In this document: positions 23,106 through 64,000 of the stretch, one piece after another
How positions within the stretch are numbered: position 1 is the stretch's first letter
Layout: each line of letters opens with the position of its first letter
NCBI GenBank assembly: GCA_011525805.1
Contig: WYBR01000070.1
Coordinates: forward strand, 80,588 to 144,587
Length of the DNA stretch: 64,000 nt
Reading direction: 5' to 3'
Origin: Vicinamibacteraceae bacterium
GTDB taxonomy: Bacteria > Planctomycetota > Phycisphaerae > Phycisphaerales > UBA5793
Notes under the pieces: model-generated
The model's database searches: none
The model's input: only the letters and a program-made list of their open reading frames with translations
Told to the model about the DNA's origin: nothing
Translations under genes and position numbers: made by a program

Positions 23106-23112
23106 GTGAATC

Positions 23113-27173: not shown

Positions 27174-27183
27174 GGAGGCCGGC

Positions 27184-28890: not shown

Positions 28891-28997
28891 TGCGCCTGGA
28901 TGTGACGGCGCAAGCGGTCTCGGAGGGTTTTTCAGATTCGATAGTGCAGCGCTTCAACGCCTCGATCCCCTGATGCCTTGATCTCTCATTCTCTCCC

Positions 28998-30989: not shown

Positions 30990-31153
30990 GGAGAGAGATG
31001 AGTGAGAGCATCCGGGCGTGCCTCGGCCGCACCTCCGGAGAAGTCATGGACGAGGGGCCTGCGACGCTCGGACGCGAGACGGGCCCCGTACGCCGGTTCA
31101 AGGAGTGGACCGGTGCGACCAGGATGGTTCGGCCGAACAAGTGGAGCGTTCAC

Positions 31154-31600: not shown

Positions 31601-31712
31601 GGGCCGCCGGCCCGGGCCGCGCAGGGCGCCCGGCCGCGAGGCCTGGCGCATGTGGGTTGGAATGCTGGCGATTCGGCGCAGGGAGTGCGCCCGGATCCAA
31701 CGGAGCAACGGA

Positions 31713-32030: not shown

Positions 32031-32119
32031 ACCTCGCCTCGCGCCGCACGACGGCCGCGACGCCCCGCGCCCCGGAACGGGCGCCACTCGACCAGTAGCC
32101 TCAATCAAGGAGGATTGTC

Positions 32120-33589: not shown

Positions 33590-33684
33590 CGCTGATAGAG
33601 AAGGATGGTGAAGGCGCCGCCCTTGTGGTGACGCTGCCGAATCCCGCTTGCGTCTTCGCCTCACGGCCTGGTCCGCGTAACTCG

Positions 33685-33692
33685 GCCGATAA
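33685..33692 (+). promoter_or_regulatory. Sigma-28 (FliA)-type -10 box candidate, GCCGATAA
   Basis: This is an 8/8 match to the enterobacterial/Bacillus sigma-28 -10 consensus, in the 400-nt spacer between the two flagellin genes. No TAAA-like -35 lies at the expected 15-nt spacing, and a strong hairpin follows it, so the function is uncertain. Confidence 0.25.
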
Positions 33693-33716
33693 CTCCACAC
33701 TCACGAAGAGCCCCGC

Positions 33717-33768
33717 GCGGCTCCCGATAATCCGGGAGCCGCCATTCGTTTTGGCGGCCGACCGCCAA
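33717..33768 (+). terminator. Tandem hairpins downstream of flagellin 1 (candidate intrinsic terminator)
   Basis: GCGGCTCCCG-ATAATC-CGGGAGCCGC (10-bp perfect stem, 33717-33742) is followed by CATTCGTTTTGG. A second hairpin, TTGGCGG-CCGA-CCGCCAA, follows. Confidence 0.5.
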
Positions 33769-33989
33769 GGGCGCAGGATTCGGAAAGCGCAAGGAAAACG
33801 ATGTTCCGGATCAATGGACTTAACCCGGTTGCCATAGCGGACGATAGCAGTGCGTGGCCGATCTGGGTGGATGCCCGCAGTGGGCGCAAGACGGCTGACG
33901 CATCTGACCGGCTTCGAAGGAGCGAGGTCGATTAGAGGCCAACAAGCAAACGCCCCGAGAAGGGCACACTTCCAGTCACGGAGGATGGC

Positions 33990-35604: not shown

Positions 35605-36720
35605 ATGCACCCGCCCAGGGAGTTCGAGTCGTTCTACTGCGGCCTGCCCGTCCTCGTGACCGGCGGCGCCGGGTTCATCGGCTCGCACCTCGTCCGCGCC
35701 CTTGCCGGCCTCGGCGCCGCCGTCCGCGTGATCGACGACCTCTCGGGCGGCACGCTCGACAACCTGGCGCCCCTGCGCGTTGAGGAGGCGAAGACGCAAC
35801 CGGGCGCGGGGGATGCGCCTCCTTCGCGTGGGTCTTCGCCTTCGCGATCACCGGCGTCGCATGCCTCTTCGCCTGCCGCGATTCAGTTCTTCCGCGCGTC
35901 GATCCTCGACGCCGACGCCCTGGCGCGCTGCTGCCAGGGGGTGGCGGTGATCTTTCACGAGGCGGCCCTTGCCTCCGTCCCCGCCAGCATCGAGCAGCCG
36001 CGGCGCTACCTCGAGGTCAACGTCCTCGGGACGCAGCAGGTGCTCGAAACGGCGGTCAACTGCGGCGTCAAGCGCATCGTCTTCGCCTCCTCGAGCAGCG
36101 TCTACGGCGACCAGCCGGCCCTGCCGAAGGTCGAGACGCAACTGCCCGATCCGCTCAGCCCCTACGCCCAGCAGAAACTCACCGGCGAGCACCTGATGCG
36201 CGTCTGGTCGCTGTGCTACGGCCTGAGCACGGTGTGCCTGCGATACTTCAATATCTTCGGGCCGCTCCAGCGCGCTGACTCCGCCTACGCCGCGGTCGTG
36301 GCCGCCTTCGCCAAGGCGCTGCTGAGCGGGCGGCGACCTCGCATCTTCGGCGACGGCTCGGCCTCGCGCGACTTCACCGCCGTCGACGACGTCGTTCAGG
36401 CGAACCTGCGCGCGGGGGCGATGCACGGCCTCGACGCTCGGCCACGGGACATCCCCCAACTCGCCGGACAGGCAATCAACATCGCCCGCGGCGAGCGCGT
36501 GACCGTCCTCGAACTGGCGCGCCTCATGGCCGAGATCGTCGGCATCGACGCGCCGCCGCTCTTCGAGCCGCCCCGGGCTGGCGACGTGCTCCACAGCCTC
36601 GCGGACATCACCCGTGCGCGGCAGTGGCTCGCGTACGAACCGCAAACCCCGGTGCGCAGCGGGCTGGAACAGACGATCGCGTGGTACCGCGAGGCCCTCG
36701 GACAGCGGGAAGCGCGCTGA
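35605..36720 (+). CDS. NAD-dependent sugar-nucleotide epimerase/dehydratase (extended SDR family)
   Basis: VLVTGGAGFIGSHLV Rossmann motif and the YAQQK catalytic YxxxK are present. A low-complexity Ser/Pro insertion of about 35 aa (aa 59-92) follows the second beta strand. Confidence 0.85.
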   Translation: MHPPREFESFYCGLPVLVTGGAGFIGSHLVRALAGLGAAVRVIDDLSGGTLDNLAPLRVEEAKTQPGAGDAPPSRGSSPSRSPASHASSPAAIQFFRASILDADALARCCQGVAVIFHEAALASVPASIEQPRRYLEVNVLGTQQVLETAVNCGVKRIVFASSSSVYGDQPALPKVETQLPDPLSPYAQQKLTGEHLMRVWSLCYGLSTVCLRYFNIFGPLQRADSAYAAVVAAFAKALLSGRRPRIFGDGSASRDFTAVDDVVQANLRAGAMHGLDARPRDIPQLAGQAINIARGERVTVLELARLMAEIVGIDAPPLFEPPRAGDVLHSLADITRARQWLAYEPQTPVRSGLEQTIAWYREALGQREAR

Positions 36721-51038: not shown

Positions 51039-52406
51039 TCAGCGCCTCAGAAGCACCGCCTGGCCGGTGGTGAGTCGGATCGGCCGCACACCGCTGCCGG
51101 CGGCGAACTCATCCACCGCCTGCCGCGCGCCCGGGCACGTCAGAAACCCGTCATCATCGATGATGATGATCCCGCCGGGAGTGAGGCGAGGGTAGAAGAA
51201 CGCGAGCGCAGCGCGCGTCGGTTCGTAGAGATCCACATCGACGTGGACGAAAGCGAAGCGCGCCTCGCACGCCGCCTCGAAGCACGCAGGGATCCAGCCT
51301 TGATGAAACGCCAGGTCGCTCCAGCGCGCCAGGGCGGCCCGCACATCTTCAATTCCCCATCTCATGTCGCCCGGCCGCCATGGTCTCACTCCCGGCTCGG
51401 GGCGGTCGGCGGGCGTCGGCGTCGAGAGGCCCGCGAAGGAGTCGAAGAGGTGGTGGGCGTAGGCGGCGTGGCGCGGCAGCATCTCGGCGTAGCGGCGGAT
51501 GATCCACGAGCCGAGGCCGCGGTAGACGCCGCACTCGGCCGTGTCGCCGTCGAGCCGGCCCAGCGAGAGCAGGCATTCCTTGATCGTGTAGTAGCGGTCG
51601 CGCGGCCCGGGGCCGCAGAGCGCTTCGCCCTCGGCGCAGATGCGGTTGAACTCCTCCTCGCGCGGCCAGTAGAGCAGATCGTCGCGCAACTTCGCCGCGC
51701 CGCGCGCCGCCTCGGGCTGGTGCGTGTCGATGGGAGTCGTGATGATCGAGACCTCTTCACGCTTGCGCGCCGCGAAGAGAAGCAGCGTGTATTCGCGCAG
51801 CGAGTCCGTCTGGAAGGGCGCTTCGAGGCAGCCGATCGCTTCGATCTCACCAAGGCGCAGCGAGCCGCTGCGGGGCAGGCGGGCCAGCCAGCCTCCATCG
51901 ATCTCGAAGCCGTTGGCGCGATAGAACTGGTCGAGCACGCGGGGCTGCAGGGAGTAGAAGCCGTGGTTCTCCCAGCCGGCGACGGGTGAGACATGCAGGA
52001 CGGTCCCGCCGGTTCGGAGCATCGCGACGATGCCGCGAAGGGCCGCGGGAATGTCGAAAATGTGCTCAATCGTTCCGCCGTCGATAATCAGATCGAAGCG
52101 GCCGCGCCACGGCTGCGGCGGAGGCTGCGAGAGGTCGTGGAGGATCGAGGCGCCTTCGCCGCCGAACAGATCGAGCGCGTGATACTCCCGAAAGCCCAGG
52201 AGAGAGAAGAAGCGATCCGCGGCAACGCCGGATCCCGGCGCGAGCGCCTGGATCGGCGCGGCGACGGGCCGCCCCTCGAGCAGGTCGCGGACCTCCGACT
52301 CTGTGGCGCCGATGTCCTGCACGCCCAGCGTGAGCACCGACCTCCCCGGCGCGCGGGCACGCTGCCGCTCGATGAGCCAGCGGACGATCGGCAGCGCCAG
52401 GCCCAT
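51039..52406 (-). CDS. Two-domain methyltransferase: N-terminal class I SAM-MTase-like domain plus C-terminal TylF/MycF-type O-methyltransferase domain
   Basis: The N-terminal half has VLTLGVQDIG...ASILHDL...FDLIIDGGTIEHIFD...GGTVLHVSP. The C-terminal half has DTAECGVYRGLGSWII...LFDSFAGL...FAFVHVDVDLYEPTRAALAFFYPRLTPGGIIIIDDDGF, the macrocin-O-methyltransferase family pattern. Confidence 0.7.
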   Translation of the reverse strand: MGLALPIVRWLIERQRARAPGRSVLTLGVQDIGATESEVRDLLEGRPVAAPIQALAPGSGVAADRFFSLLGFREYHALDLFGGEGASILHDLSQPPPQPWRGRFDLIIDGGTIEHIFDIPAALRGIVAMLRTGGTVLHVSPVAGWENHGFYSLQPRVLDQFYRANGFEIDGGWLARLPRSGSLRLGEIEAIGCLEAPFQTDSLREYTLLLFAARKREEVSIITTPIDTHQPEAARGAAKLRDDLLYWPREEEFNRICAEGEALCGPGPRDRYYTIKECLLSLGRLDGDTAECGVYRGLGSWIIRRYAEMLPRHAAYAHHLFDSFAGLSTPTPADRPEPGVRPWRPGDMRWGIEDVRAALARWSDLAFHQGWIPACFEAACEARFAFVHVDVDLYEPTRAALAFFYPRLTPGGIIIIDDDGFLTCPGARQAVDEFAAGSGVRPIRLTTGQAVLLRR

Positions 52407-52442: not shown

Positions 52443-53975
52443 TCAGGCGGTGCGGGGGCACTCATGCGCCGCTTTGCTCCACCGAGAGGGCGGGTCATAG
52501 ATCTGCTTGAAGGGAAGGTCATCGCGGTAGAAGCCCAGTGACGCAACGCGCCACCGTCGCAGCAACTGATCGGCCGGAGTGAAGTGCCGCGCCTTGGGTG
52601 CGATGCCCACTCCCACATGGTACTTGCCGTCGCACAGGAACAGCCTCGGGAACTCGACGCGGAAGACCTGCCGGCCGCGCCGGAGGTTGAGACGCTGCGG
52701 CGAGGGTCGCCCCGTCTCGTTGAGTTGTGTGAGGTTCGTCGAAGTGAGCACGTGAATGTCCGCCTCGTTGAAGATCTGCACGCCGATGGCGACGTTGTCC
52801 TTGCGCACGCTGCTGTCCACGGTGATTTCGACCGTCACGGGCTCGCCGGTGTGGAAGCGGTCTCGCGGCTCGCCCGTGGCGTCCAGCACGCGCACCGAGG
52901 CGAGGCGGACGAGATTGAGATGCAGGATCGGCGGGCAGCGGTCTTCGGGATCGTCAAGCAGCGCCTGCACCTCCGGCGACAGCGGCGGCACCGAAGGATC
53001 ATCCTCATCAACGGGCGGCGCGCCGCGAGCCGCGGCGTCCTCGTCGCGGATCGCCCCCGAATCACCCAACGCCCCCGCCGCCCTCGCCCCAGCCACCCCC
53101 GCGCCGCGCCCCTTCGTCGTCTTCGCAAACTCCGCGAGCAGTTCCTTCTCGTACATCTGCGTAATCTCACGGCTCGGGCCGTCGGCCGCGAGTTCGCCTC
53201 GCCGCAGGTAGAGCGAGCGCGAGCAGAGCGTCTCGATGAAGAACATGCTGTGCGAGACGACCAGCGCCGTCGCCCCGCCGGTGCACAGGTCAAGGATGTG
53301 GTTCGTACACTTCTGCTGAAAGGCGAGATCGCCCGTCGCCAGGGCTTCATCGACGATGAGAATGTCCGGTCGGCGGCAAAAGGTGACGGCGAAAGTAAGG
53401 CGAGACTTCATCCCGCTGGAATACGTGCGAAACGGCTGGTCGATGACGTGCCCCAGGCCGGAAAAGTCGATGATCCAGTCGATCGACTCTTCAATCTCGG
53501 CCTTGGTGTAACCGAGGCAGTAACCGCCCATGAAGATGTTCTCGCGGCCGGTGTACTCCTCGTGGAAGCCGGTCCCGAGTTGGAGAATGGCGCGGAGGTT
53601 GCCGGCGATGCGGAACGAGCCTTGAGTGTGGTCGAGCGTGCCGGCGAGGATGCGCAGGAGCGTGCTCTTGCCCGCGCCGTTGGCGCCGACGACGCCGACG
53701 ATCTCCCCGCGCTTCACCGTGAACGACACGTCGCGCAACGCCCAGTGCGGCTTGTAGAGCGGGCGGCGGACGATCAGTTCCTTGAGAATCTGCGAAGGGC
53801 TGGAGTAGATCTTGTAGAGTTTGGAGAGGCCGCTCACGGCAATCGCGGCGCGAGGCTCGGGGCTTGAGGACTGAGAAGCAGCCTGCGGCGGGAGCCGCAG
53901 GTTGACGGCCGAAGCCCCCGTCGCGGACGCGGCGACTTCAACGGGTTGGCGCGATGGAGTGAGCACTTCCGTCAT
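52443..53975 (-). CDS. wzt: Wzt/TagH-type polysaccharide-export ABC transporter ATP-binding protein with a C-terminal beta-sandwich (Wzt_C-like) domain
   Basis: Walker A GANGAGKST, signature YSSGMKSRLTFAV and Walker B ILIVDEALATGD are present. After an Ala/Gly/Asp-rich linker, the C-terminal 160 aa or so (VRLASVRVLDATGEPRDRFHTGEPVTVEITV...LCDGKYHVGVGI) fit the carbohydrate-binding domain pattern of Wzt proteins. Confidence 0.85.
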   Translation of the reverse strand: MTEVLTPSRQPVEVAASATGASAVNLRLPPQAASQSSSPEPRAAIAVSGLSKLYKIYSSPSQILKELIVRRPLYKPHWALRDVSFTVKRGEIVGVVGANGAGKSTLLRILAGTLDHTQGSFRIAGNLRAILQLGTGFHEEYTGRENIFMGGYCLGYTKAEIEESIDWIIDFSGLGHVIDQPFRTYSSGMKSRLTFAVTFCRRPDILIVDEALATGDLAFQQKCTNHILDLCTGGATALVVSHSMFFIETLCSRSLYLRRGELAADGPSREITQMYEKELLAEFAKTTKGRGAGVAGARAAGALGDSGAIRDEDAAARGAPPVDEDDPSVPPLSPEVQALLDDPEDRCPPILHLNLVRLASVRVLDATGEPRDRFHTGEPVTVEITVDSSVRKDNVAIGVQIFNEADIHVLTSTNLTQLNETGRPSPQRLNLRRGRQVFRVEFPRLFLCDGKYHVGVGIAPKARHFTPADQLLRRWRVASLGFYRDDLPFKQIYDPPSRWSKAAHECPRTA

Positions 53976-53998: not shown

Positions 53999-56900
53999 CT
54001 ACGCTCCTCCCACCAATCGTCTCACGAACGATCCGATCCCGCGGCGCCGCTCGAAGGACTCGGTCGGGGCGGGCTGCGCGGTGCGGCGCACGAAAATGCG
54101 ACTCGAAAGCACGAGCAACTGCTCATCGCTCATCGCCGCGAAGCGGGCCGAGAGCAGAGGCCGGACCGCCGCCAGTTGCTCCCGCGTCCCCAGCAGGTTC
54201 TCATCCACGCGATCGATCGAGAACCCGGCGCGGCGGAAGTCCTCCACGAGTTCGTGCGAGCGCACTCGGTTGCCGTTCTCGTTGCGGCTGCGCAGGAAGA
54301 TGCGGCGATACTCCTCGTCGTCGTAACGGAGGAAGTCGTAGGGGCGGTCGAAGTTCTGGTGGTCGCGGAAATCGACCTGGTGAACGCCCAGGCCGCCGCC
54401 CCTTGTGAGACGCGCCAGTTCGCACGCGGTCAGGTACGTGTCGCCGACGTGTTCGAGCACGGCGTTGGAGACGATGACGTCAAACGAGCTGTCCGGCAGG
54501 TCGCTCGGCGGCGCGGCGAGGTCGCAGGCGTGCTGGGCGATCGTCTCTCTGAGGTGCCGCCCCGCGGCGACGATCGCGGCCAGCCCGTCCCACTTCGCGC
54601 GCGGCAGGCGCCTGGCCGCCGCCGCCCTCAGGCCCGCGTAGAAGCGCGGATGATACGACGGATCCCACTTCGCGAGATACTTGTCGAGCACCGCGACGCG
54701 CGCGCCCAGCGCCTGGCAGATGAGCATGCTGCCGAAGTTGCGCCCGGGGCCGAGTTCGAGCACGCTCAGGCCCGTGAGATCGGGAATGTCGTCAAGCACG
54801 GTCACCTTGGCGAAGTCGGGCAGTTCGCCGGAAAAGCGGCCGAAGTGCCGGCCGATGCAGTAGGCGTAGTCGATCGCGTTGCGCAGGCAGTAGCCGACCT
54901 GGTCGTTGAGGACGTCGGTGAACTCGTCGCCGTCGGTGCCCGCCGCGGCTGCGGCGGCCTCATCCGCGCGCGGCTGGGCGAAGACGCGCGCGATGGCGTC
55001 GTCGGCGCCCGCCCCCTGCTCCGCGCCGCTTCGCCGGACGAAGAAGCGGGCGCTGACGATCATCAACTGCTCATCGCCCATCGCGGCAAAACGGTCGATG
55101 AGGTGCGCCCGGACTTCGGCGAGATGCTCGGGCGAAGCGAACATGTTGGGCTCGACGCTCTCGACGACGAACCCCGCCGCGGCGAAGTCCGACGCCAGTT
55201 CGTGCGGGCGCACCCGGTTGCCCTGGCTGTTGCGCGATGTGAGAAACGTCTGCGCCGCGCTCTCTTCCGGAATGGTGAGGAAGGTCAGCGGACGATCCTG
55301 CGCGCGGTGGTCTCGGAAGTCGACCTGGTGGACGCCGACGCCGCCGGGCCGCGTCAGCCGCGCGAGTTCACCCGCCATCGCGGCCGTGTCGCCGATGTGC
55401 TCAAGCACGGCGTTGGAGACGATCGCGTCGAAGGAGGCGTCGTCGAAGGAGCAGGGAGGCTCGGCGAGGTCGCCGGCGGCGGCGCGGACGATCGACTCAT
55501 CGTGCCGCGACGCCCCGATGATCCGGTCGAGGCCCGACCAGTCGGCGTAGGGAAAGTGCGACTCGCACTCGCGCTTGAGGGCGCGATAGAAGTGGGGGTG
55601 ATACTTCGCGTCCCACTGCGCGAGGTACTTGTCGAAGACGGCGACCTGGGCGCCGCAGGCGCGGCAGAGGAGCATCGTGCCGAAGTTCGGCCCGGGGCCG
55701 AGTTCGAGAATCGACAGGCCACGCAGGTCCGGCAGCACGCCGTAGCGCTTGGAGTAGTGATCGCTCGACCCCGGCATCGCGCCGCGCCCGAACTGCTGCG
55801 CCACTGCCGAGGCGTAGTACACGCCGTTGACGATCGCGTAGCGCACGTGCTCGTCGAGGGCGCCCTCGACGGCCCAGCGGTCGTCGGTCAGGTCGATGGC
55901 CGCCACCTTCTTGGCGATCGGCCCCTCGCCGAGGCGCTTGAGAAAGAAGCGGCCGCTCACCACCGCCAGTTGCGCATCGCTCAGCGCGGCGAACCGGGGC
56001 TGCAACCGCGGCCGGACCTCGGCGAGGTGCTCGGCCGGCGCCCAGATGTTGGCGTCAAAGCGCCTTATCTCGAAGCCGCTGCGCCGGAAATCCTCCCCCA
56101 TCGCCTCGTGGCGCACCCGGTTGCCGTTGCCGTTCATCATCTCGTCAAAGAGCCGCCGGTACGCCTCGTCGGGCATGGTGAGGAACTCGAGCGGGCGCGA
56201 AAAGTCTCGGTGGTCGCGGAAGTCGACCTGGTGGATGTTGATCCCGCCCGGCGCGGTCAGGCGCGCCATCTCCGCCGCCGTTTTGGGAACGTCGCCCACG
56301 TGCTCGAGCACCGCGTTGGAGACGATCACGTCAAACGACGCGTCGGCATAGCCGCTGGGCGGCTCGGCGAGGTCGGTCCGATCCTGCGCGATGATGTCGG
56401 GCAGGTGGTCGGCTGCATTGATGATGCGGTCGAGCGAAGACCAGTCGCGCCGCGGCCACTTCGCCCCCACCGCCTCGCGCAGGAAGCGGTAGAAGCGCGG
56501 GTGATAGACCTCGTCCCAGTCGGCCAGGTACTTGTCGAGCACGGCGACGCGCGCGCCGAAGGCGTGGAGGATCAGCGGCGTGCCGAAGTGCCGGCCGGGG
56601 CCGAGTTCGAGCAGGCGCAGCCCCGCCACTGAATGGACACTATCGGCCCTCGACGTTGAACGGTCTCCGCGTCCATTCAATGGCGGGGCGAGCGGCATCG
56701 CCTCATCGCTGCGCCGGCCCAGTTCGCCGCAGATGAGTTGCACGTACTCATCCGCCACGCGCACGGCATACTCGACATCTTCGCGCACCTGCGCATCGGT
56801 GATCGCGCGGAGGTAGAAGCGGCCGCTGATGGGACGCAACTGCTCATCGCGCATCGCGGCAAAGCGCGGCGCCAGCCGAGGCCGCAGCGACGCCAGATAG

Positions 56901-57658
56901 CCCTCTTCGGCGAGCAGGTTCGGCCCGAAGTGCTCCACGCGGAATCCCACCTTGCGGAACAGGTCGCGCATCTCGTCGGGACGCAGCCGGTTGCCGCGCG
57001 TCCAGCGACCCGCCGCCCGCTCCTTCGCGACCGCTTCGTCCGCGAAGGTAAGGAACTCGAGTGGCCTGGCGTAGTCGCGCGAGTCACGGAAGTCGACCTG
57101 ATGGATGCCGAAGCCGTTGGGCCGGGTGATGCGGCACAACTCCGGCAGCAGGCTCGGCAGGTCCACCTGGTTGAGGATCGCGTTGCTCACGATGCAGTCG
57201 AACGAAGCGTCGTCGATCGCCAGCGGACCGGAGAGCGAGGCGATCGTGTGCAGCGCCAGCGCCGGCGATTCGTACGAACCGGCAGCGAGAACGTCATCGA
57301 TGAAGGACCAGTCGGCTTCGGGATACTCCTCCGCCCCGACGCGGGCCAGCGCGCGGAGACAGGCCGGGCTGCCCTCGCTCCACTTCACGAAGTGCGTATT
57401 GATCGCGGCGATCTCCGCGCCGAAGGCGCGGCAGACGAGCATCGGGCCGAAGCGATTCGGCGTGCCCAGTTCCGCGATGCGCAGCCCCGAGAGGTCGGGG
57501 AAAGGGTGCATCCGCCGCGCGAGGTGGTTCGCCATCGTCTTGGCGCACTCAAAGCCGTTGTCGATCGCGTATCGAACCTCCGCGAGCGCGGCGGGATCAA
57601 GGGGCGCATCGACGGCCAGAGCGTGGGTGGAAGCGTGGTGCATCGTCTGCGACATCAA
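53999..57658 (-). CDS. Tetra-modular SAM-dependent methyltransferase (four tandem paralogous MTase modules in one 1219-aa protein)
   Basis: Modules of about 290-315 aa repeat four times. The anchors are L(E/A)ELG(P/T)GxxFG (aa 63, 351, 652, 968), ASFD.IVSNA.L(E/N), HQVDFRD (aa 186, 476, 777, 1093), GNRxR..E....F...GF and RFAAM.DEQL...S.RFF..R. Confidence 0.8.
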   Translation of the reverse strand: MMSQTMHHASTHALAVDAPLDPAALAEVRYAIDNGFECAKTMANHLARRMHPFPDLSGLRIAELGTPNRFGPMLVCRAFGAEIAAINTHFVKWSEGSPACLRALARVGAEEYPEADWSFIDDVLAAGSYESPALALHTIASLSGPLAIDDASFDCIVSNAILNQVDLPSLLPELCRITRPNGFGIHQVDFRDSRDYARPLEFLTFADEAVAKERAAGRWTRGNRLRPDEMRDLFRKVGFRVEHFGPNLLAEEGYLASLRPRLAPRFAAMRDEQLRPISGRFYLRAITDAQVREDVEYAVRVADEYVQLICGELGRRSDEAMPLAPPLNGRGDRSTSRADSVHSVAGLRLLELGPGRHFGTPLILHAFGARVAVLDKYLADWDEVYHPRFYRFLREAVGAKWPRRDWSSLDRIINAADHLPDIIAQDRTDLAEPPSGYADASFDVIVSNAVLEHVGDVPKTAAEMARLTAPGGINIHQVDFRDHRDFSRPLEFLTMPDEAYRRLFDEMMNGNGNRVRHEAMGEDFRRSGFEIRRFDANIWAPAEHLAEVRPRLQPRFAALSDAQLAVVSGRFFLKRLGEGPIAKKVAAIDLTDDRWAVEGALDEHVRYAIVNGVYYASAVAQQFGRGAMPGSSDHYSKRYGVLPDLRGLSILELGPGPNFGTMLLCRACGAQVAVFDKYLAQWDAKYHPHFYRALKRECESHFPYADWSGLDRIIGASRHDESIVRAAAGDLAEPPCSFDDASFDAIVSNAVLEHIGDTAAMAGELARLTRPGGVGVHQVDFRDHRAQDRPLTFLTIPEESAAQTFLTSRNSQGNRVRPHELASDFAAAGFVVESVEPNMFASPEHLAEVRAHLIDRFAAMGDEQLMIVSARFFVRRSGAEQGAGADDAIARVFAQPRADEAAAAAAGTDGDEFTDVLNDQVGYCLRNAIDYAYCIGRHFGRFSGELPDFAKVTVLDDIPDLTGLSVLELGPGRNFGSMLICQALGARVAVLDKYLAKWDPSYHPRFYAGLRAAAARRLPRAKWDGLAAIVAAGRHLRETIAQHACDLAAPPSDLPDSSFDVIVSNAVLEHVGDTYLTACELARLTRGGGLGVHQVDFRDHQNFDRPYDFLRYDDEEYRRIFLRSRNENGNRVRSHELVEDFRRAGFSIDRVDENLLGTREQLAAVRPLLSARFAAMSDEQLLVLSSRIFVRRTAQPAPTESFERRRGIGSFVRRLVGGA

Positions 57659-57670: not shown

Positions 57671-59707
57671 TCAGGTGCGCACGGGTTGGGCGGCGATGGT
57701 GTGGATCGCGGGCGGGCCGTCGTCGCTCGCGGCCGGCGCTGCCTCGGCGCTTGGCGCGCGGCTGAGGGTCCGGGCGGGCGTTTCGATCCGCGCACCGCCG
57801 CCGCGCAGCGCCGTTTCGTAGACGCCGCAGGTCAGGTCCACCATCCGGTCGAGGTTGAAGCGATCATCGACGTACGCCTGCGCCGCGCGGCCGAAGCGCT
57901 CGCGCAGCCCGGAGTCCTGCAGGAGTTTCTGGAGGCTGATGACCAGCCCGGCCACGTCATCGACGCCGCAGACAAAGCCAGTCTCGCCGTGGGCGACGGC
58001 GTCGGGCGTGCCGCCGGCGTCGGTCGCGACCACGGGGATGCCGACGTGCTGGGCCTCGAGCGCGACGTTGGGACAGCCCTCGTAGCGGCTCGTGAGCAGC
58101 AGAACGTCAGCGGCGCTCATGATCTCGACGACGTTGTCCACGCGCCCCAGCAGGGCGATGTTCCGCGCCAGGCCACGCCGCGCGATGATGGCGCGGACGT
58201 CGGCCTCGAGCGGGCCGCTCCCCGCGACCGCGACGCGCAGGCCCGGCAGCCGTTCGCGAAGCAGGGCGATGACCTTGAGCATCAGTTCCGGCTGCTTCTC
58301 CTCATCGAGACGGTTGACGACCGCGACGACCGGCGCCTCGGGCGGCAGGCCCAGCCGCCGCCGCGCCGCGAGGCGCTGTGCCGGCGTCGGCCGGTCAAAG
58401 TGCTCGCGGAACAGGCCGTTGAACACGATGTGAAAGCGCGACTCGTCCAGCCCGACGTACTCGGCGTAACTCGCCGCGCCGCGATGCGAGTTGGCCATCC
58501 AGTGAATGCGCCGGCTCGGCGCCGCGACGCGGTACCAGTCCACGAAGGGCGAGTAAAAGCGCGGAAAGTGCGTCGGGTTGTAGTTGCGCGTGCTCAGGAT
58601 CACGCTGGGCACGCCCGCCGCGATCCCCGCCAGGCCCGCGATCACATTCGGATGATCGAGCCATGCGTGCAGCACGTCGGGCCGGTGCGCGGCGAGTTCG
58701 AGCGCGAGGTTGGCGACGTAGGAGCGAATCGCGTCCGGGGCCGCGGCGATGAGGTCCCACCGGACGCGCTCCAGCGCCGCGGCATCGACGCGCAGGCCGC
58801 TCCCGGCGCGCCGGGCGTCAACGCCCGCCCGGCTCAGCAGCGGCAGGTAGTGCCCATGCTGGCCGACGAGATCGTGCTGCGTGCGCACCAGGCACTCATG
58901 GCCGCGCTGCACCAGGCCCAGCGCGGTGTTGCACAATTGCCGCTCCGCCCCGCCGCTGTAGAGGCAACCGGTGTATTGAATGATGCGCAGAGGCCGCTCC
59001 GGAAGCGCCGCCGCCGGCTTGAACGAAGCGTTGTCGCGCTCGATGAACTGCCTCCACGCCGACTCGGCGTCGCCGCCGCGCTTCGACGCGATCGGATGCA
59101 CGATCACTTCGCCCTCGGGCAAGGCGGGCGCCGGCTCGGCGCGGCGCAGCCAGCGGCCCAGGCCCGCGGCGGCTTGCTCGTGGTCGATGAGCAGGCCGGG
59201 GAAAAGGCGGCGAAGCAGCGGCTTGATGCGCCGGCGCGCCAGCAGGTCGGCGAGCACCTCGGCCACGTGTACGCGCACCCAGCCGCGATCGTCGAGAAGC
59301 CACAGGTCCGTCACCCCGGCGCGGCGGAGCCACATCATCGCCTTGATGGAGAGATTGGCTCGCGACGTCGGAACGACCGCCGTCAACTCACCCGGCGGCA
59401 GCGGCGCCAGGCGCGTCAGCGACGGCAGCGGGCCGGAGACGTCCAGTCGCCACAGCGGCGCGTGGCTGCCGATCGGCCGCGCCCCGCACGCCGCCACCTG
59501 CGCCAGCACGAAGGCGCTGAAGAGATCGAGCCAGGGGCCGGCCGCCAGCGTGCCGGAATGCACCGCCACGCCGCCTTCGTCGTGCCACTGGCGCACCGCC
59601 AGCGCCAGCGCATCGAGGTCGGCCGCGCCGGCCATGCCGGCGGGGGACGGAACAGAGGCATCGGCGCCGCGGCCTTCAGGGCCGGCGATCGAGGGCGGAA
59701 GCGTCAC
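57671..59707 (-). CDS. GT4-family glycosyltransferase with an uncharacterised N-terminal extension of about 270 aa
   Basis: The C-terminal two-thirds has RIIQYTGCLYSGGAERQ...(GT-B N domain) and LLTSRYEGCPNVALEAQHVGIPVVATDAGGTPDAVAHGETGF (the EX7E-type GT4 motif). The GTG at 59707 overlaps the upstream stop (GTGA). An alternative ATG is at 59635. Confidence 0.75.
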   Translation of the reverse strand: MTLPPSIAGPEGRGADASVPSPAGMAGAADLDALALAVRQWHDEGGVAVHSGTLAAGPWLDLFSAFVLAQVAACGARPIGSHAPLWRLDVSGPLPSLTRLAPLPPGELTAVVPTSRANLSIKAMMWLRRAGVTDLWLLDDRGWVRVHVAEVLADLLARRRIKPLLRRLFPGLLIDHEQAAAGLGRWLRRAEPAPALPEGEVIVHPIASKRGGDAESAWRQFIERDNASFKPAAALPERPLRIIQYTGCLYSGGAERQLCNTALGLVQRGHECLVRTQHDLVGQHGHYLPLLSRAGVDARRAGSGLRVDAAALERVRWDLIAAAPDAIRSYVANLALELAAHRPDVLHAWLDHPNVIAGLAGIAAGVPSVILSTRNYNPTHFPRFYSPFVDWYRVAAPSRRIHWMANSHRGAASYAEYVGLDESRFHIVFNGLFREHFDRPTPAQRLAARRRLGLPPEAPVVAVVNRLDEEKQPELMLKVIALLRERLPGLRVAVAGSGPLEADVRAIIARRGLARNIALLGRVDNVVEIMSAADVLLLTSRYEGCPNVALEAQHVGIPVVATDAGGTPDAVAHGETGFVCGVDDVAGLVISLQKLLQDSGLRERFGRAAQAYVDDRFNLDRMVDLTCGVYETALRGGGARIETPARTLSRAPSAEAAPAASDDGPPAIHTIAAQPVRT

Positions 59708-61983
59708 GAGGCGGGACTCCCGTTGCGGTGGGGACTCACGGCCGGTCGGTCCAGGCCATCCTCCAGATCGTAGACCTTTCCCTCGACCGTCAAACACCGG
59801 CGATCGACCTGTTCGAGCGACTGTTCCAGCAGCGACTCGATCCGTCGGAGAAGTTGGCGCCGGTCGTCGTCGAGGCGGGCCGAGAGGCGGCTGATCTGGG
59901 CCGTCAGTTCCGTGTGCATCTGCTCGCGGCGGCGCTGCTCGGCCTCGCGCTCAGCGAGGTGTTCGGCCGCAGTGGTTTCAAGGCGCAGGCGGAGGCGCTC
60001 GTTTTCCGCGCTCAGCCCGGCCGCCCGCGCTTCCGCGGCAGCGAGGGCGGCGCGGCCTTCGGCGTCCTGCACTCGCAGCGATTCGAACCGGGCGGCCGCC
60101 TCGCGCAGCGCCGCTTCCTGTCGCGCCGCCTGCCCGCGCGCCGCTTCGAGATCGCGCGTCAGGTGCTCCAGGCGCTCCGCCAGGCGCTGCTCGCCGGACT
60201 GCCGCTCGGCGAGCGCCTGCTGCGCGGCCCGGAGTTCGCCGGCCGTCTCGCTTCGCTGCCGCTGCGCCTCGTTGAACACGTTGGCGTGGTGGTTGATCTC
60301 CTTGAGCCAGTTGGCCGCCTCGCGCTCGCGCTGGGCTCGGGCGGCCGCGAGTTCCGCGGCGATCGCCTCGACGGCCGCCTGCGTCTGGTCGAAGCGCTGC
60401 TGCAGCGCCGCGACCTGCTCGTCGGTCTTCACCCGGCCGCGCCACTGCTCCGTCTCGCGCTTCGCCGCTTCCAGACCCGCGTTCACCTCGTGCAACTGAC
60501 CCTCGAGGGCGTTGGCGCGGCTCCACCATTCGAATCGCTCCTCGCGCACGCGGCGCTGCAGCGCCGTTTCGTCGCGGCGAAGTTCGAGAATGCGATCGGA
60601 CTGGCTGGTATGGAGGCGAAGTTCCGACAGCAGCGCCGCGGCTTTCCTCGCTCGCAAGCGACCCTTGCCCCTCGCGCCGGCCTTGGCGCACACCGCCATG
60701 ATGACCTGCGGCCCCGCCGCCTCGACGGACCACGGCCGTTGAACCTCGAAACGGCCTCCTCCCGGCGCGCTTGAAGCCTCCTCCTCGAAAACGAGCGAGC
60801 CCGTAACGTCCGCCTGCCGCAGCCAGCGAATCGAATCGAAGCGATCGAGCCACTGCCCAAGTTCCTCGCGCGACGGGATGTGGAGGTGGAACGCGTTGCG
60901 GTGCTGGTTGATCCGGTCCCACGACGTCTCGAAATCTCGATCCGGCACGGAGATCAGCAGCAACCCGCCGGGCGAGAGCAGGCGATCAAACTCCGCGATC
61001 GCCTCGCGCTGGCCGCTGAGATGCTCGAGCGCTTCGAGGCAGACGATGAGATCGAAGGCGTCGTCATCGAAGGGGAGCGGTGTTTCGTTGAGATCCCACT
61101 GCACGAACTCCGCCCGTTCATCGTCACCGAGGCGCTCGCGGCCGAGCCTGATCGCCTCGGGCGATATGTCCAAATTGACGACGTGCTTGGCCCCCGCCTT
61201 GAGATACTCCTCCGCCCCGAGCCCCGCCCACCCGCCCGCGTCGAGCACGCGGCGGCCCTTCGCCAGCGCGGCGGCAATGTCCAGCCGCGCCCGGCAATGG
61301 GCCATGATCGTCGCATCGTCGAGCACCGGGTGGTCCGACATCGGCGCCGAAAGGCGCACGAGACTCAACCCCGCCAGCGCCGCTGCGGCAGCGGAATTGT
61401 CCGGCGGGCGCACGCCGAATCCCACGGCGACGGCGGCTTGTTCGATCCTCCGCAGCGCCGCCTCAACATCCGCATCGCTCTCGCGCGGCACGATCTCGAT
61501 CGACGAACTCCACTGCGTGCGCCCGTGGATCAGCCGGAGCATCGCCTCGGGGTCGCGGCCGAGGCGCGCGAGGCCGTCGAAGATGACGATCTCGACGGGC
61601 CCTTCGATCTGATCGGAGAGACCCTCGTCGGTCCCGTGGAGATACGCGAAGCCCCAGCGGCGGTGGTAGTTGTCGTGCTGGAGGCCGTCGAGGGGGTGGG
61701 TGAGGAGGCGCGGCTCGCGCTGAACGATGGCGTCGCGCAGCGCGGGCATCAGGGCGTCGTCGCGCGGCCGGACCCACGGCCGCTCATCGGGGCAGCACAC
61801 CTGCACCTGAGAGCCGGCGCAGGCAAACCACAGGCCCAGCGCGAGGTCGGCCGGCTCATCCTGGATGATGGTGAGGCGCTGCCACAGCGACCGCCCGCAG
61901 CCGCCCGGCCAGCGAGCAATGATCCCCTCCGCTCGACCGATGATGTTGCGGGCCGCTGCGCCGCTCTCCGGGCCAGCAGGCAT
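59704..61983 (-). CDS. Methyltransferase with an N-terminal unknown domain and a C-terminal coiled coil of about 280 aa (WbdD-like chain-terminator/ruler architecture)
   Basis: Class I MTase motifs are RVLDAGGWAGLGAEEY...VVNLDIS...DAFDLIVCLEALEHL...LLSPGGLLLISVP (aa about 235-350). From about aa 450 to 730 the sequence is continuous Ala/Arg/Glu/Gln/Leu-rich and heptad-like (ALQRRVREE...LEAAKRETEQW...LAERLEHLTRDLEAARGQAARQEAALREAAARFESL...). Confidence 0.75.
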   Translation of the reverse strand: MPAGPESGAAARNIIGRAEGIIARWPGGCGRSLWQRLTIIQDEPADLALGLWFACAGSQVQVCCPDERPWVRPRDDALMPALRDAIVQREPRLLTHPLDGLQHDNYHRRWGFAYLHGTDEGLSDQIEGPVEIVIFDGLARLGRDPEAMLRLIHGRTQWSSSIEIVPRESDADVEAALRRIEQAAVAVGFGVRPPDNSAAAAALAGLSLVRLSAPMSDHPVLDDATIMAHCRARLDIAAALAKGRRVLDAGGWAGLGAEEYLKAGAKHVVNLDISPEAIRLGRERLGDDERAEFVQWDLNETPLPFDDDAFDLIVCLEALEHLSGQREAIAEFDRLLSPGGLLLISVPDRDFETSWDRINQHRNAFHLHIPSREELGQWLDRFDSIRWLRQADVTGSLVFEEEASSAPGGGRFEVQRPWSVEAAGPQVIMAVCAKAGARGKGRLRARKAAALLSELRLHTSQSDRILELRRDETALQRRVREERFEWWSRANALEGQLHEVNAGLEAAKRETEQWRGRVKTDEQVAALQQRFDQTQAAVEAIAAELAAARAQREREAANWLKEINHHANVFNEAQRQRSETAGELRAAQQALAERQSGEQRLAERLEHLTRDLEAARGQAARQEAALREAAARFESLRVQDAEGRAALAAAEARAAGLSAENERLRLRLETTAAEHLAEREAEQRRREQMHTELTAQISRLSARLDDDRRQLLRRIESLLEQSLEQVDRRCLTVEGKVYDLEDGLDRPAVSPHRNGSPAS

Positions 61984-62158: not shown

Positions 62159-64000
62159 ATGAAGGCGCCCCGTCCCCGCGATCGCCGGAACTTCGTCCTG
62201 GCCCGCGGCCCGGCGCTTCATCCGCGGCCGCGCTTCGAGGCGCTCGAGAAACGGGCGCTGCTCTCCGCCGCTGTTCTCGGCGGCGACCTGCGGCGATTCG
62301 AGTTCCACGACGCCGACGGCGATACGGTTCTCGTACGGCTCATCGGCCGCGGTACGGCCGAACTCACTCTCTCCAATGATGCGGCCGACTTCGCAGACCT
62401 TGAACGCGTCGAGTTGCGCGGCGTAGATGCGGGCACGACACTGCGCATCGACGTACTCCGCGACCACGAGGGAGACGAGGCAACGACCCTCGGCTCGCTC
62501 ACCGCCGATGGGGCGCTCAATCGACTCGATCTGCGCCGCGTCACGCTCATCGGCGCGGGCATCGACGTCAACGGCCCGCTCAATCGACTCGATCTCGCCG
62601 CAGTCCGCGGCGAACTCAGCGATCGCACGGCAATGAGCATCCGCGGCGACCTGGGCCTCGCGCGATTCCTTGGCGACGTCGTCGGGGCCGACGTGGCGAT
62701 CGCCGGCGCCGCCGGCGCCATCATCATCCGCTCGGGCAATCTCGCTTCGAGCGCGATCACCGCCGGCGGAGACCTCGGCCGCTGCATCACGCTTGATCGC
62801 GGCGGCCTGGCCGGTCTCATCCTCGACACCGAACTCGTCATCGGCGGCTCAATCGAAACATGGCGGACGCAGGGACTCTCAAACGTCTCGGGACGGATCG
62901 GCGGCGATCTCGCTCGCCTTGGTGTCACCGGCAACCGCACCGAGACTTTCGGCACAATCGATCGAACGCGCCTTGCCGTCGAAGGTGAACTGACGCACCT
63001 GCGCCTCGGACGCGACGTGCAGGCCGACTCGATCCTCGCGGCAGAGCGCGGCTTCGGACGCATCACCATCAAGGGCGGCGTCCGCGACTCGATGATCCTC
63101 GCGGGCGCGGCCCTCGATGCGGACCTGTCTCTCGACCATGCGACCTTCGCCGTCGCGCCCATCGGCAGCGGTCGCATTGGCGGCGACCTGCTCGACTCCA
63201 TCCTCGCCTCGGGAGGCGATCCCGGCGAAGACGGCCTCTTTCGCAACCACGAGATTCTCGAAGGCGGCTCCATCGGGCGACTGACCATCGGCGGCTACGT
63301 CGCCGGCGTCCACAGCGAGCATCCGAATCCCGGCGTTTACGCGGCGCAGATCGATCGCCTCAGCGTGCGCGGCTGGCGCCTCGACGGCAAGAGCGATGAC
63401 CTGCGCGCGGGGATTCTCGGCACGGCGGTGATCGATCCCCTGCCCGATGCCGCCGCAGCGCTGACCGAACTTGACGTGCGGCAGATTCTCGAACAGATGA
63501 TCGCCCGCGCGACGCAACTGGGCGTGAACGCAACGCTCGCCGTGACCGACCGCGAGGGCAACATCCTTGCCGCCGTGCGCATGACCGACGGCTCACTCGC
63601 GCCCGACCCCGGCACATCGACGATCACCGGCGGGGGCAGCGGCGGACTTGAAGGCGTGACCGTCGCCTCATCCATCACGGCCGTGACGAAAGCGGGCACC
63701 GCCGCGTTTCTCTCGACGACGGGCAATGCGTTCACGACGCGCACGGCCGGTCAGATCATCCAGCCCAACTTCCCGCCGGGCGTGCGCTTCCAGGATTCCG
63801 GGCCGCTCTTCGGCGTGCAGTTCTCCTCGCTGCCCACGAGCGACATCAACCGCCTGCCGCTGGGCTTGTCGGCCGATCCCGGCGGCGTGCCGCTCTACCG
63901 CAACGGGCAACTCCTCGGCGGCGCGGGCGTTGAACTCGACGGCACGTACACGTTTGACCCCAGCCCGATCGGCGGGCGGGCGACGCTCGAAGAGCGCATC
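62159..64000 (+). CDS. Secreted repeat protein with a C-terminal GlcG/DUF336 (haem-binding-like) domain; the 3' end lies outside the window
   Basis: GAGGAGG lies 9 nt upstream of the ATG at 62159. I translated 614 codons to the window edge and saw no stop. The N-terminus MKAPRPRDRRNF...RPRFEALEKRALLSAA has the LExRxLLSA-type motif. The middle has Gly/Leu/Asp-rich repeats (GRIGGDL..., GRLTIGG...). From about aa 455, LTELDVRQILEQMIARATQLGVNATLAVTDREGNILAAVRMTDG...GGVPLYRNGQLLGGAGV matches DUF336. It is absent from the ORF track because it has no stop in the window. Confidence 0.65.
   Translation, partial: MKAPRPRDRRNFVLARGPALHPRPRFEALEKRALLSAAVLGGDLRRFEFHDADGDTVLVRLIGRGTAELTLSNDAADFADLERVELRGVDAGTTLRIDVLRDHEGDEATTLGSLTADGALNRLDLRRVTLIGAGIDVNGPLNRLDLAAVRGELSDRTAMSIRGDLGLARFLGDVVGADVAIAGAAGAIIIRSGNLASSAITAGGDLGRCITLDRGGLAGLILDTELVIGGSIETWRTQGLSNVSGRIGGDLARLGVTGNRTETFGTIDRTRLAVEGELTHLRLGRDVQADSILAAERGFGRITIKGGVRDSMILAGAALDADLSLDHATFAVAPIGSGRIGGDLLDSILASGGDPGEDGLFRNHEILEGGSIGRLTIGGYVAGVHSEHPNPGVYAAQIDRLSVRGWRLDGKSDDLRAGILGTAVIDPLPDAAAALTELDVRQILEQMIARATQLGVNATLAVTDREGNILAAVRMTDGSLAPDPGTSTITGGGSGGLEGVTVASSITAVTKAGTAAFLSTTGNAFTTRTAGQIIQPNFPPGVRFQDSGPLFGVQFSSLPTSDINRLPLGLSADPGGVPLYRNGQLLGGAGVELDGTYTFDPSPIGGRATLEERI

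Follow-up and report, generated by a model that had tools for sequence, protein, structure and literature searches.

The 64,000-nt window analyzed here, to which all positions refer, comes from a genome of the Phycisphaerae (Planctomycetota) and carries on its minus strand an operon that opens with a gene for a 759-aa protein (P0001; open reading frame and translation at 59704..61983, minus strand; GC3, 0.84). In order, this protein consists of an N-terminal domain with a methyltransferase (MTase) fold, a class I SAM methyltransferase, a coiled coil, and a conserved C-terminal tail. Its N terminus, MPAGPES, is kept among homologues. The protein is predicted to be cytoplasmic, with no transmembrane segment and no hydrophobic segment in the 759 aa (maximum 19-residue Kyte-Doolittle hydropathy, 1.32). 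A promoter-like site, for which the evidence is weak, was noted ahead of the gene at 62051-62022 (minus strand).

The coiled-coil MTase gene is followed by genes for a GT4 glycosyltransferase, a protein with four MTase modules, a Wzt with a Wzt_C domain, and a TylF-type MTase, with spacings of 12 to 36 nt or a GTGA overlap. The GT4 gene (57671..59707, minus strand) encodes a TviE-like enzyme with an N-terminal domain of ~250 aa and matched Pfam Glycos_transf_1 (E = 1.9e-36) and NCBIfam TviE (E = 1.2e-48, below the family cutoff). As the sole glycosyltransferase of the operon, it is presumed to be the polymerase. The GT4 gene begins with a GTG that overlaps the stop codon of the coiled-coil gene (GTGA), as read directly from the sequence; the two genes are translationally coupled, and an overlap of 1 to 4 nt is kept in four relatives. 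An upstream GTG at 59797 was rejected as the GT4 start in favor of the GTG at 59707, based on the lengths of homologues and the conserved overlap.

The third gene (53999..57658, minus strand) encodes a 1,219-aa protein with four tandem methyltransferase modules (Pfam) that presumably modifies the glycan; the close family keeps it, and in distant relatives its place is taken by one or two MTases with a single module each. The Wzt-type ABC transporter ATPase (52443..53975, minus strand) matched Pfam ABC_tran (E = 1.5e-22) and contains a C-terminal Wzt_C carbohydrate-binding domain (40.8 bits versus a cutoff of 30.4). The last gene (51039..52406, minus strand) encodes a 455-aa TylF-type O-methyltransferase (Pfam TylF, E = 6.1e-18) with a second, weak MTase signal and is also conserved in the close family. 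The locus contains five or six MTase modules besides the coiled-coil MTase. The wzm gene belongs to the cluster in relatives, and here the half that includes wzm is found on contig C117. The possibility of an orphan ATPase was rejected, given that wzm (72% identical to the gene of relatives) and other upstream cluster genes are present on that contig. The cluster is kept down to 32 to 35% identity and comprises wzm, a radical-SAM gene, a small ORF, an asnB-like gene, the coiled-coil MTase, the GT4, one or more MTases, and wzt with Wzt_C.

Methyltransferase head and coiled coil of the 759-aa protein

The N-terminal domain (aa 1 to 215; 61339..61983, minus strand) had been left as a domain of unknown function when read from the sequence only. 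It indeed had no match in Pfam, but its fold could be assigned as that of a divergent class I methyltransferase. An AlphaFold2 (AF2) model of aa 1 to 225 was obtained with a pLDDT of 88.3 and a pTM of 0.86, and the best 50 Foldseek matches of this model against the PDB were all SAM-MTases (probability, 1.0; TM score, 0.37 to 0.57). Alignment to the protein's own MTase domain with hhalign was significant in local mode only (P = 3e-4; 140 columns in register), with nothing recovered in global mode. After beta-1, where a Gly-rich SAM-binding loop would read xDxGxGxG, the sequence is QDEPADLA, without any Gly; because the Gly-rich loop is absent, the domain was classified as MTase-like and probably noncatalytic.

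The second domain (aa 216 to 445; 60649..61338, minus strand) was annotated as a class I SAM-dependent methyltransferase by matches above the Pfam cutoffs to Methyltransf_11 (E = 2.1e-18; aa 247 to 344) and Methyltransf_23 (E = 9.6e-18). It has the fold, motif I, the acidic residue after beta-2, and the motif III D/N of class I SAM-MTases, and D248, G250, G254, D272, and D297 show no variation within the close family. Motif I reads LDAGGWAG, in which an invariant Trp (W252) takes the place of the central Gly in the close family; the wider family has GGGTG, with Gly at this position. An aromatic residue also occupies this place in enzymes of the COMT and TylF types, and the Trp was therefore regarded as tolerable. 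The nearest solved relatives of the domain are MitM, RebM (3bus), and the D-glucose O-methyltransferase AtmM (6uv6), of which RebM and AtmM are sugar O-methyltransferases. When the full-length model was used, the best 50 Foldseek matches were headed by two-domain MTases, such as PMT-2 and RlmKL. Structurally, the head as a whole was matched best by nematode PMT-2, RsmC, and RlmKL, enzymes with tandem MTase folds, one of which has lost catalytic function; their substrates and contexts are unrelated, and none has a coiled coil.

The sequence-only reading had placed a coiled coil of about 280 residues C-terminal to the methyltransferase, at 59794-60636 (minus strand). This interval encodes aa 450 to 730 of the 759-aa ORF, and the coil was confirmed by a test of hydrophobic periodicity, the absence of Pro, and the AF2 monomer model. 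The rod comprises about 260 to 285 residues. The Fourier power of L/I/V/M/F/Y/W at a period of 3.5 across aa 446 to 730 was 1.52, a value reached by 0 of 2,000 shuffled sequences, in agreement with the heptad-like pattern that had been proposed. The region is Pro-free between aa 441 and 746 and has 8 Gly in aa 446 to 730, matching the earlier description of no Pro and few Gly; the description of the same region as almost entirely Ala, Arg, Glu, Gln, and Leu was somewhat overstated, although the bias is real (A, 19%; R, 16%; E, 15%; L, 12%; Q, 9%; total, 71%). A relationship to SMC proteins was rejected, as the NCBIfam SMC matches (~20 to 22 bits versus cutoffs of 567 to 729) reflect coiled-coil composition alone. 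The full-length AF2 model (monomer; 11-sequence alignment; mean pLDDT, 60.7) contains helices at aa 462 to 517 and 521 to 726, with one break. The coil was modeled with moderate confidence (pLDDT, ~55 to 78), and aa 727 to 759, which contain 3 Pro and had been described as a short nonhelical tail, were indeed modeled as nonhelical (pLDDT, <50). A single unbroken heptad register spans aa ~561 to 684, with seven Leu, two Phe, one Ile, and two Ala at position a and five Leu and five Ala at position d. These residues (L/F/I at a and L/A at d) are compatible with more than one oligomeric state, and a parallel oligomer is assumed below. Fully extended, the coil would measure roughly 36 to 42 nm.

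Alignment of homologues divided the coil into three parts. The linker and conserved N-terminal part (aa 446 to 577; 60253..60648, minus strand) has a length of 132 aa in 10 of the 11 close homologues, with a mean identity of 62.5%, and contains an (F/Y)xWWxxxN anchor at aa 484 to 491 that fused and distant relatives retain as well. Every large insertion or deletion falls in the variable central part (aa 578 to 685; 59929..60252, minus strand), which was defined by identity, an indel table, and a register map. This part ranges from 59 to 122 aa among close homologues, where its identity averages 40% with a minimum of 19%, and its heptad register is unbroken. The C-terminal helical part (aa 686 to 730; 59794..59928, minus strand) is again conserved (79% identity), and its periodicity moves toward 3.6 to 3.67 (Fourier power, 2.15 at 3.67 for the window from aa 684). 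It is amphipathic at this periodicity and not cationic, and it ends at the RRC of a family-wide motif, RRCLxxE(S/G)(R/K)VYDLED, which is kept in relatives of 32 to 39% identity. The C-terminal tail proper (aa 731 to 759, LTVEGKVYDLEDGLDRPAVSPHRNGSPAS; 59707..59793, minus strand) shows the highest conservation in the whole protein, with 88% identity among close family members; its xYDLED and distal NG(S/G) were seen again in distant relatives. Conservation at this level indicates that a specific partner exists, the identity of which is not given by conservation; the tail is proposed as a candidate docking or recruitment peptide for the GT4 polymerase.

Coil length variation and fusion proteins in the family

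Within the close family, the head is 68% identical and the tail 88% identical, against 40% for the middle of the coil. The distance between the conserved anchors is 197 to 257 aa in the close family and 120 to 289 aa in the wider family. Of the checks proposed in the sequence-only reading, structure prediction gave long helices in the monomer model, and comparison of coil lengths among homologues gave coils of 120 to 289 aa. Taken modulo 7, every net difference in length within the close family is 0 or 4, which corresponds to heptads plus a stutter. Heptad periodicity is retained in 21 of 22 family members despite differing composition, including relatives from lower-GC genomes, in which the coils are rich in E/K/Q/N. 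Such a pattern, with fixed ends around a coil middle free to change in both length and sequence, is typical of a spacer.

Fusion proteins of 1,123 to 1,355 aa were found in which the head runs directly into GT4, and both the long coil and the tail motif are missing. In one of these (P0023), residues 27 to 513 align with aa 11 to 496 of the query (35% identity) and residues 523 to 1098 align with aa 75 to 661 of the GT4 (42% identity). As Rosetta-stone evidence, such fusions tie the head physically to GT4 and place the coil of the split proteins exactly between the two. They also suggest that the head, kept beside GT4, may act during polymerization as a modifying enzyme. A Wzt_C domain was present in all five of the coil-bearing loci examined and in neither of the two coil-less fusion loci, one of which has a 270-aa ABC ATPase lacking Wzt_C and the other no ATPase within 10 kb; this correlation is based on seven loci in all, only two of them with fusions.

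All family members come from metagenome-assembled genomes or metagenomes. The wider family and the fusions were recovered by an exhaustive search of representatives; a word-indexed search with the family alignment had added just three distant members to the family. A scan of 401 Planctomycetota genomes with a stricter first look returned no other full-length member and three MTase-only matches, and a search of GTDB species genomes with a single peptide pattern returned four full-length relatives along with many unrelated MTases. The rarity of the family is therefore a lower-bound impression, these genome scans having been strict or based on a single pattern.

Proposed role in glycan chain termination and length control

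WbdD is the chain terminator and coiled-coil molecular ruler of an ABC transporter-dependent O-antigen pathway (PMC3482155, PMC5082667, PMC11231755). Insertions and deletions in its coil move the modal chain length (PMC5082667), and an extended coiled coil, with the terminating enzyme at its distal end, has been called "a characteristic marker" of terminators in this type of pathway (PMC11231755). The class compared here, the coiled-coil glycan chain terminators, includes WbdD, WbbB, Klebsiella pneumoniae O4 ORF7, and O7 ORF6; the terminating module in this class is a methyltransferase, a kinase-methyltransferase, or a Kdo transferase. As in these proteins, a catalytic module (the predicted class I SAM-MTase at aa 216 to 445) and a coil are found in one polypeptide; the extended coil would place the catalytic module distal to the polymerase, the head being N-terminal and the C-terminal end adjoining GT4 according to the coupling and the fusion junction; and a wzt encoding a C-terminal carbohydrate-binding module is in the same operon, with wzm in the cluster of relatives and on contig C117 here.

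The protein resembles WbdD in having a separate GT4-family polymerase (WbdA there and the TviE-like GT4 here), in its linkage to wzm and to a wzt encoding a C-terminal glycan-binding domain, and in being cytoplasmic without a transmembrane segment. Unlike WbdD, in which the MTase is followed by a kinase, which in the O9a type is eukaryotic-like and precedes the coil, it has a degenerate MTase fold N-terminal to the active MTase; its helix of about 262 to 285 residues (about 36 to 42 nm) exceeds the ~20 nm of WbdD, the coil of which is a parallel trimer; and where WbdD has a membrane-binding amphipathic C terminus with a site for polymerase recruitment, no hydrophobic segment was seen and a conserved RRCLxxE(S/G)(R/K)VYDLED tail is present. 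The polymerase also differs from WbdA in being a single GT module with an N-terminal domain without an assigned fold. The earlier observation that a recognizable kinase domain is lacking proved correct (none in Pfam or NCBIfam at E ≤ 0.01), but the contrast to WbdD drawn from it did not hold. WbdD of Escherichia coli O9a and K. pneumoniae O3 is a methyltransferase-kinase (PMC3482155, PMC5082667, PMC11231755), and WbdD of E. coli O8 and K. pneumoniae O5 adds a methyl group only (PMC3482155, PMC11231755), so lacking a kinase is no ground for separating the 759-aa protein from WbdD-type terminators. Orthology to WbdD was rejected, as no sequence similarity was found beyond the class I MTase superfamily: WbdD was absent from phmmer matches to the PDB at E ≤ 0.01, from the 60 listed matches of a 26-sequence profile against all PDB chains (generic MTases only), and from the best 50 Foldseek matches of the full-length model.

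A second parallel is provided by K. pneumoniae O7 ORF6 and O12 WbbB, in which terminator, coiled coil, and polymerase GT modules share a single polypeptide and whose orthologues either stop after the coil or run on into GT modules (PMC11231755). Here, too, a coiled coil separates the terminating module from the polymerizing GT, and split and fused forms occur. The O7 and O12 fused proteins, however, keep a coil between terminator and GT, whereas the fused forms of the present family have no long coil, and the modules differ (MTase-kinase or beta-Kdo transferase and GT2 there; MTase and GT4 here).

Based on these analogies and on genomic context, the 759-aa protein was interpreted, with a probability of about 0.6, as the chain-terminating and length-setting subunit of an ABC transporter-dependent surface glycan pathway of the O-antigen or capsule type, and it most likely acts in the manner of E. 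coli WbdD, capping a sugar chain and restricting how long it becomes. The head, a noncatalytic methyltransferase-fold domain and an active SAM methyltransferase, would be carried on the tip of a parallel coiled-coil rod. At the opposite end of the rod, its conserved C terminus and the tail peptide would keep the protein attached, at the membrane, to the TviE-like GT4 polymerase. A lipid-linked chain would grow until its nonreducing end reaches the head, which would O-methylate the terminal sugar and block further extension. The Wzt_C domain would then recognize the methyl cap, and the transporter would export the finished chain. With the head at the far end of the rod capping any chain end that reaches it, coil length would set the modal chain length. 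Given the five or six other MTase modules at the locus, the methyl cap would have to differ from internal methylation. The molecular ruler put forward by the sequence-only reading is thus favored by the operon with Wzt_C, the coupling to GT4, coil variation between fixed ends, and the coil-less fusions; the side remarks of that reading on the kinase contrast and on the N-terminal domain needed correction.

The coil could instead be a scaffold that oligomerizes the protein or organizes a complex of GT4, MTases, and transporter. In that case, the MTase would modify residues along the chain, as is presumed for the fused forms, and length would depend on something else, for instance, the polymerase-to-transporter ratio. 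Fused relatives do place the same head directly beside GT4, the abundance of other MTases makes internal methylation a major theme of the locus, and the WbdD coil is itself needed for trimerization and kinase function (PMC3482155). A coil of 240 to 300 residues, however, far exceeds what oligomerization needs, the spacer signature is evident in its middle, and the Wzt_C cap-binding domain in every coil-bearing locus examined implies a terminal signal, which together make a scaffold unlikely. Still less likely is a tether that measures no length: the rod would attach the head to something besides the polymerase (the transporter, for instance, a polar or cytoskeletal structure, or the membrane by way of an adaptor) and would determine where in the cell the glycan is modified. 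The protein does appear to lack a membrane anchor of its own, and its conserved tail points to a specific partner without saying which; against this, the translational coupling to GT4 is conserved in all loci, and the fusions join the head to GT4 and to no other protein.

The sequence-only reading had itself raised the case of a low-complexity, disordered tail. An Ala/Arg/Glu-rich segment without a structural role might arise from high G+C content, and the genome (65 to 72% G+C) and the 71% share of A/R/E/L/Q would fit. This explanation was essentially refuted, and is considered extremely improbable, by a heptad periodicity above that of all 2,000 shuffles, its retention in lower-GC relatives with E/K/Q/N-rich coils, the continuous AF2 helices, the absence of Pro over about 300 residues, and net insertions and deletions that keep the heptad phase.

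Under the terminator and ruler interpretation, a more far-reaching possibility, put forward tentatively and considered doubtful, is that nature has produced, within this family, a series of alleles of one glycan ruler: head and GT4 stay the same, and what joins them is either nothing or a coil of ~120 to 289 residues ending in a conserved docking peptide. Such a ruler would be anchored on the polymerase and not on the membrane, would be the longest described at ~36 to 42 nm, and may have passed from a copolymerization modifier to a terminator through a gene split, insertion of a coil, and a Wzt_C cap reader.

Coiled-coil rulers are the accepted means of length control in ABC transporter-dependent polysaccharide pathways, and the evidence for them comes from a small number of proteins of enterobacteria into which insertions and deletions were engineered. 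To our knowledge, the surface glycans of Planctomycetota are almost unstudied; a literature search combining Planctomycetes, Wzt, and O-antigen retrieved no paper, and the candidate described here is the first coiled-coil terminator or ruler that we could find for this phylum in a comparison separate from specialist surveys of terminators and Wzt carbohydrate-binding modules. The strategy is a known one in a new protein, and a coil in a terminator would be expected by specialists. The family would offer the same ruler logic in a protein unrelated to WbdD, and it adds a new head architecture (pseudo-MTase and MTase) and a candidate polymerase-docking peptide. Natural constructs with identifiable anchors already exist in this family, as coils of 120 to 289 residues and as coil-less fusions, and these coil alleles make the relation of coil length to product, and the origin of a terminator from a modifying enzyme, directly testable.

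Domain architecture of the 759-residue protein

The 759-aa product of window positions 59704 to 61983 (minus strand) contained a class I SAM-methyltransferase domain at aa 230 to 382 (Pfam Methyltransf_11, E = 2e-18), with no Pfam match for aa 1 to 215. No kinase-like domain was found in the protein with Pfam or NCBIfam, as the sequence-only reading had stated. The N-terminal domain, modeled on its own with a 26-sequence alignment (pLDDT 88.3, pTM 0.86), resembled SAM-dependent methyltransferases in 50 of its top 50 Foldseek PDB matches (probability 1.0, TM 0.37 to 0.57). It also aligned in register with the protein's own methyltransferase domain (local profile-profile alignment, P = 3e-4, 140 columns), and the best structural matches of the full-length model were two-domain methyltransferases. 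Because this methyltransferase fold carries QDEPADLA at the loop expected to hold the Gly-rich SAM motif, the domain is considered degenerate and probably non-catalytic. The active domain retained D248, G250, G254, D272, and D297. The central Gly of motif I was replaced by Trp in the close family (GGGTG in the wider family), which was not taken as evidence of inactivation because COMT- and TylF-type enzymes have an aromatic residue there. No transmembrane or strongly hydrophobic segment was detected in the protein (maximum Kyte-Doolittle score of 1.32 over 19 residues).

The proposed coil at 59794 to 60636 (minus strand) corresponded to aa 450 to 730. Residues 446 to 730 comprised 19% Ala, 16% Arg, 15% Glu, 12% Leu, and 9% Gln, and the reported scarcity of helix breakers was confirmed, with no Pro between residues 441 and 746 and 8 Gly in aa 446 to 730. 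A heptad-like pattern was likewise recovered: large hydrophobic residues recurred with a period of 3.5 residues (Fourier power, 1.52 versus 0.05 to 0.26 at neighboring periods; matched by 0 of 2,000 shuffles). A register scan identified a single unbroken heptad frame at approximately 561 to 684 (a positions, L7/F2/I1/A2; d positions, L5/A5), flanked by regions with several register shifts. Full-length AlphaFold2 modeling (11-sequence alignment, mean pLDDT 60.7) placed helices at 462 to 517 and 521 to 726, separated by one three-residue break, and left aa 727 to 759 as the short non-helical tail that had been described. Based on the periodicity, the register frame, and the modeled helices, the coiled coil is real. 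At 0.1485 nm per residue, its ~262 helical residues would span ~39 nm. Near the extreme C terminus, downstream of a YDLED motif, most family members carried an NG(S/G) element (such as HRNGSP, SGNGGG, SDNGG, and AANGESG), located in the query protein at aa 748 to 758 (59707 to 59740, minus strand).

Operon and cluster context

The coiled-coil methyltransferase was the first gene of a tightly packed minus-strand operon, followed by genes for a TviE-like glycosyltransferase (GT4; 57671 to 59707), a 1,219-aa methyltransferase of four tandem modules (53999 to 57658), a Wzt ABC ATPase bearing a Wzt_C domain (52443 to 53975; 40.8 bits versus a cutoff of 30.4), and a TylF-type methyltransferase (51039 to 52406). 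The GTG start of the GT4 gene overlapped the coiled-coil gene's stop codon (GTGA). As the sole glycosyltransferase of the operon, GT4 is the presumed polymerase. No family could be assigned to its extra N-terminal domain of ~250 aa, which is conserved, with GPWLD and WLRRxGV motifs, among both the split and the fused relatives and is the evident candidate to receive the coiled-coil tail. In distant cluster relatives, one or two single-module methyltransferases occupied the place of the four-module enzyme, and contig C38 of the source genome encoded a single-module paralogue (~39% identity to each module).

No wzm was found within the window. In relatives, the contiguous cluster read wzm, radical-SAM/SPASM, small ORF, (methyltransferase), asnB-like, coiled-coil methyltransferase, GT4 (overlapping start), methyltransferase(s), and wzt with Wzt_C. 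In the source genome, an unknown 441-aa gene, wzm, radical-SAM/SPASM, a small ORF, and an asnB-like amidotransferase lay outside the window on another contig (C117:29004-37576), and since that contig runs on into other, unrelated genes, the cluster is split. A divergently transcribed 1,302-aa gene with three HbpS-like (GlcG/DUF336) stretches (62159 to 64000, plus strand, running to C50:146654) replaced the asnB-side neighbors found in relatives and marks the rearrangement breakpoint. A second paralogous pair outside the window (C95:206408-210121), with 47% (asnB-like) and 40% (TviE-like GT4) identity to a relative's cluster genes, may be part of another, related glycan system.

Elsewhere in the window, a flagellar block (21487 to 35459, plus strand; flgF/G-like rod genes, flgA, flgH, flgI, flgN, flgK, and flgL-like) followed by two 489-aa flagellin paralogues was unrelated to the methyltransferase. 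An NAD-dependent epimerase/dehydratase (GDP-mannose 4,6-dehydratase-like; 35605 to 36720, plus strand), located 15 kb away from the operon, might conceivably be a source of a sugar precursor.

Coil variation and fused relatives

Phycisphaerae-type MAGs and metagenomes were the source of ten close homologues (57 to 97% identity, 706 to 769 aa). Averaged over these homologues, identity to the query protein was 68% in each head domain, dropped from 62.5% over the 132 residues that open the coil region to 40% in the coil middle (minimum, 19%), and rose again to 79% over the final 45 residues of the helix and 88% in the tail of 29 residues. Every large insertion or deletion mapped to the coil middle, giving total coil lengths of 239, 281, 285, 292, and 299 residues. 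Net differences were all 0 or 4 modulo 7, which is only suggestive of heptads plus a stutter because the events were few and the classes were picked after the data were seen.

An exhaustive search recovered a wider family of the same architecture (32 to 39% identity), in which (F/Y)xWWxxxN at the coil start and RRCLxxE(S/G)(R/K)VYDLED at the coil end were kept throughout. Compared among these relatives, as had been suggested, coil length was variable (inter-anchor distance, 120 to 289 residues). Heptad periodicity was significant in 21 of 22 members despite a change in composition from Ala/Arg/Glu to Glu/Lys/Gln/Asn. In one metagenomic relative (P0024), the anchors were joined by a linker of 91 residues that contained 5 Pro and lacked heptad periodicity; this may be a "broken ruler" or another kind of linker, and the sequence may be N-terminally truncated.

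The same search recovered fusion proteins (1,123 to 1,355 aa) joining the head (the N-terminal domain and the methyltransferase domain) to GT4. In one of these (P0023), residues 27 to 513 corresponded to query residues 11 to 496 (35% identity) and residues 523 to 1098 to GT4 residues 75 to 661 (42% identity). The fusions lacked exactly the long coil and tail motif, and in the split form the coil sits exactly between head and GT4. A Wzt_C-bearing exporter was present at every coil-bearing locus examined. Wzt_C was not found at two fusion loci, both with asnB-like and methyltransferase genes; one had a 270-aa ABC ATPase without Wzt_C, and the other had no ABC ATPase within 10 kb.

Proposed ruler model and alternatives

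Terminators in ABC-transporter-dependent glycan assembly are described as characteristically marked by an extended coiled coil, at whose distal end the terminating enzyme sits (PMC11231755). The coil of the Escherichia coli terminator WbdD, about 20 nm, acts as a ruler, as shown with insertions and deletions (PMC5082667), and the E. coli O8 enzyme is methyltransferase only (PMC3482155). The 759-aa protein may work analogously. Homology to WbdD was rejected: WbdD was missing from the phmmer PDB matches (E ≤ 0.01) and was not among the 60 profile matches listed, and neither a kinase nor a membrane-binding C terminus was detected in the protein. Unlike WbdD-type terminators, the protein has a pseudomethyltransferase-methyltransferase head, a rod roughly twice the length of the WbdD coil, a conserved, putative docking-type C-terminal peptide, and coil-less fused relatives. 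The fused proteins of Klebsiella pneumoniae O7 and O12 retain the coil, whereas the fused relatives here do not. No paper describing such systems in Planctomycetes was found; a survey by Mann et al. (2019) might already list similar architectures.

Fusion and translational coupling indicate that head and GT4 are in physical association and work on one and the same glycan. The same evidence speaks against the rod as a tether to another partner, which is improbable. The fused forms and the many other methyltransferases would suit a scaffold or oligomerization role with internal methylation; this explanation is unlikely, as it leaves coil length, the pattern of variation, and Wzt_C unexplained. 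A disordered low-complexity tail was rejected as extremely improbable, being contradicted by the periodicity, the AlphaFold2 model, and a heptad pattern conserved across differing compositions.

Constrained ends and a middle free in sequence and length are as expected of a rod functioning as distance. This spacer pattern and the Wzt_C exporter in every coil-bearing locus make a WbdD-type model the simplest. In such a model, the tail would dock on the GT4 polymerase at the membrane and the rod would keep the methyltransferase at a distance of about 36 to 42 nm. Once a chain had grown far enough to reach the head, it would be methylated at its nonreducing end, probably on the hydroxyl required for extension, and the methyl cap would be read by Wzt_C for export. 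The coil of the sequence-only reading was borne out; its ruler role, though unproven, is plausible and draws good support from context. The family is chiefly valuable for its natural range of coil lengths, through which the ruler model can be tested.
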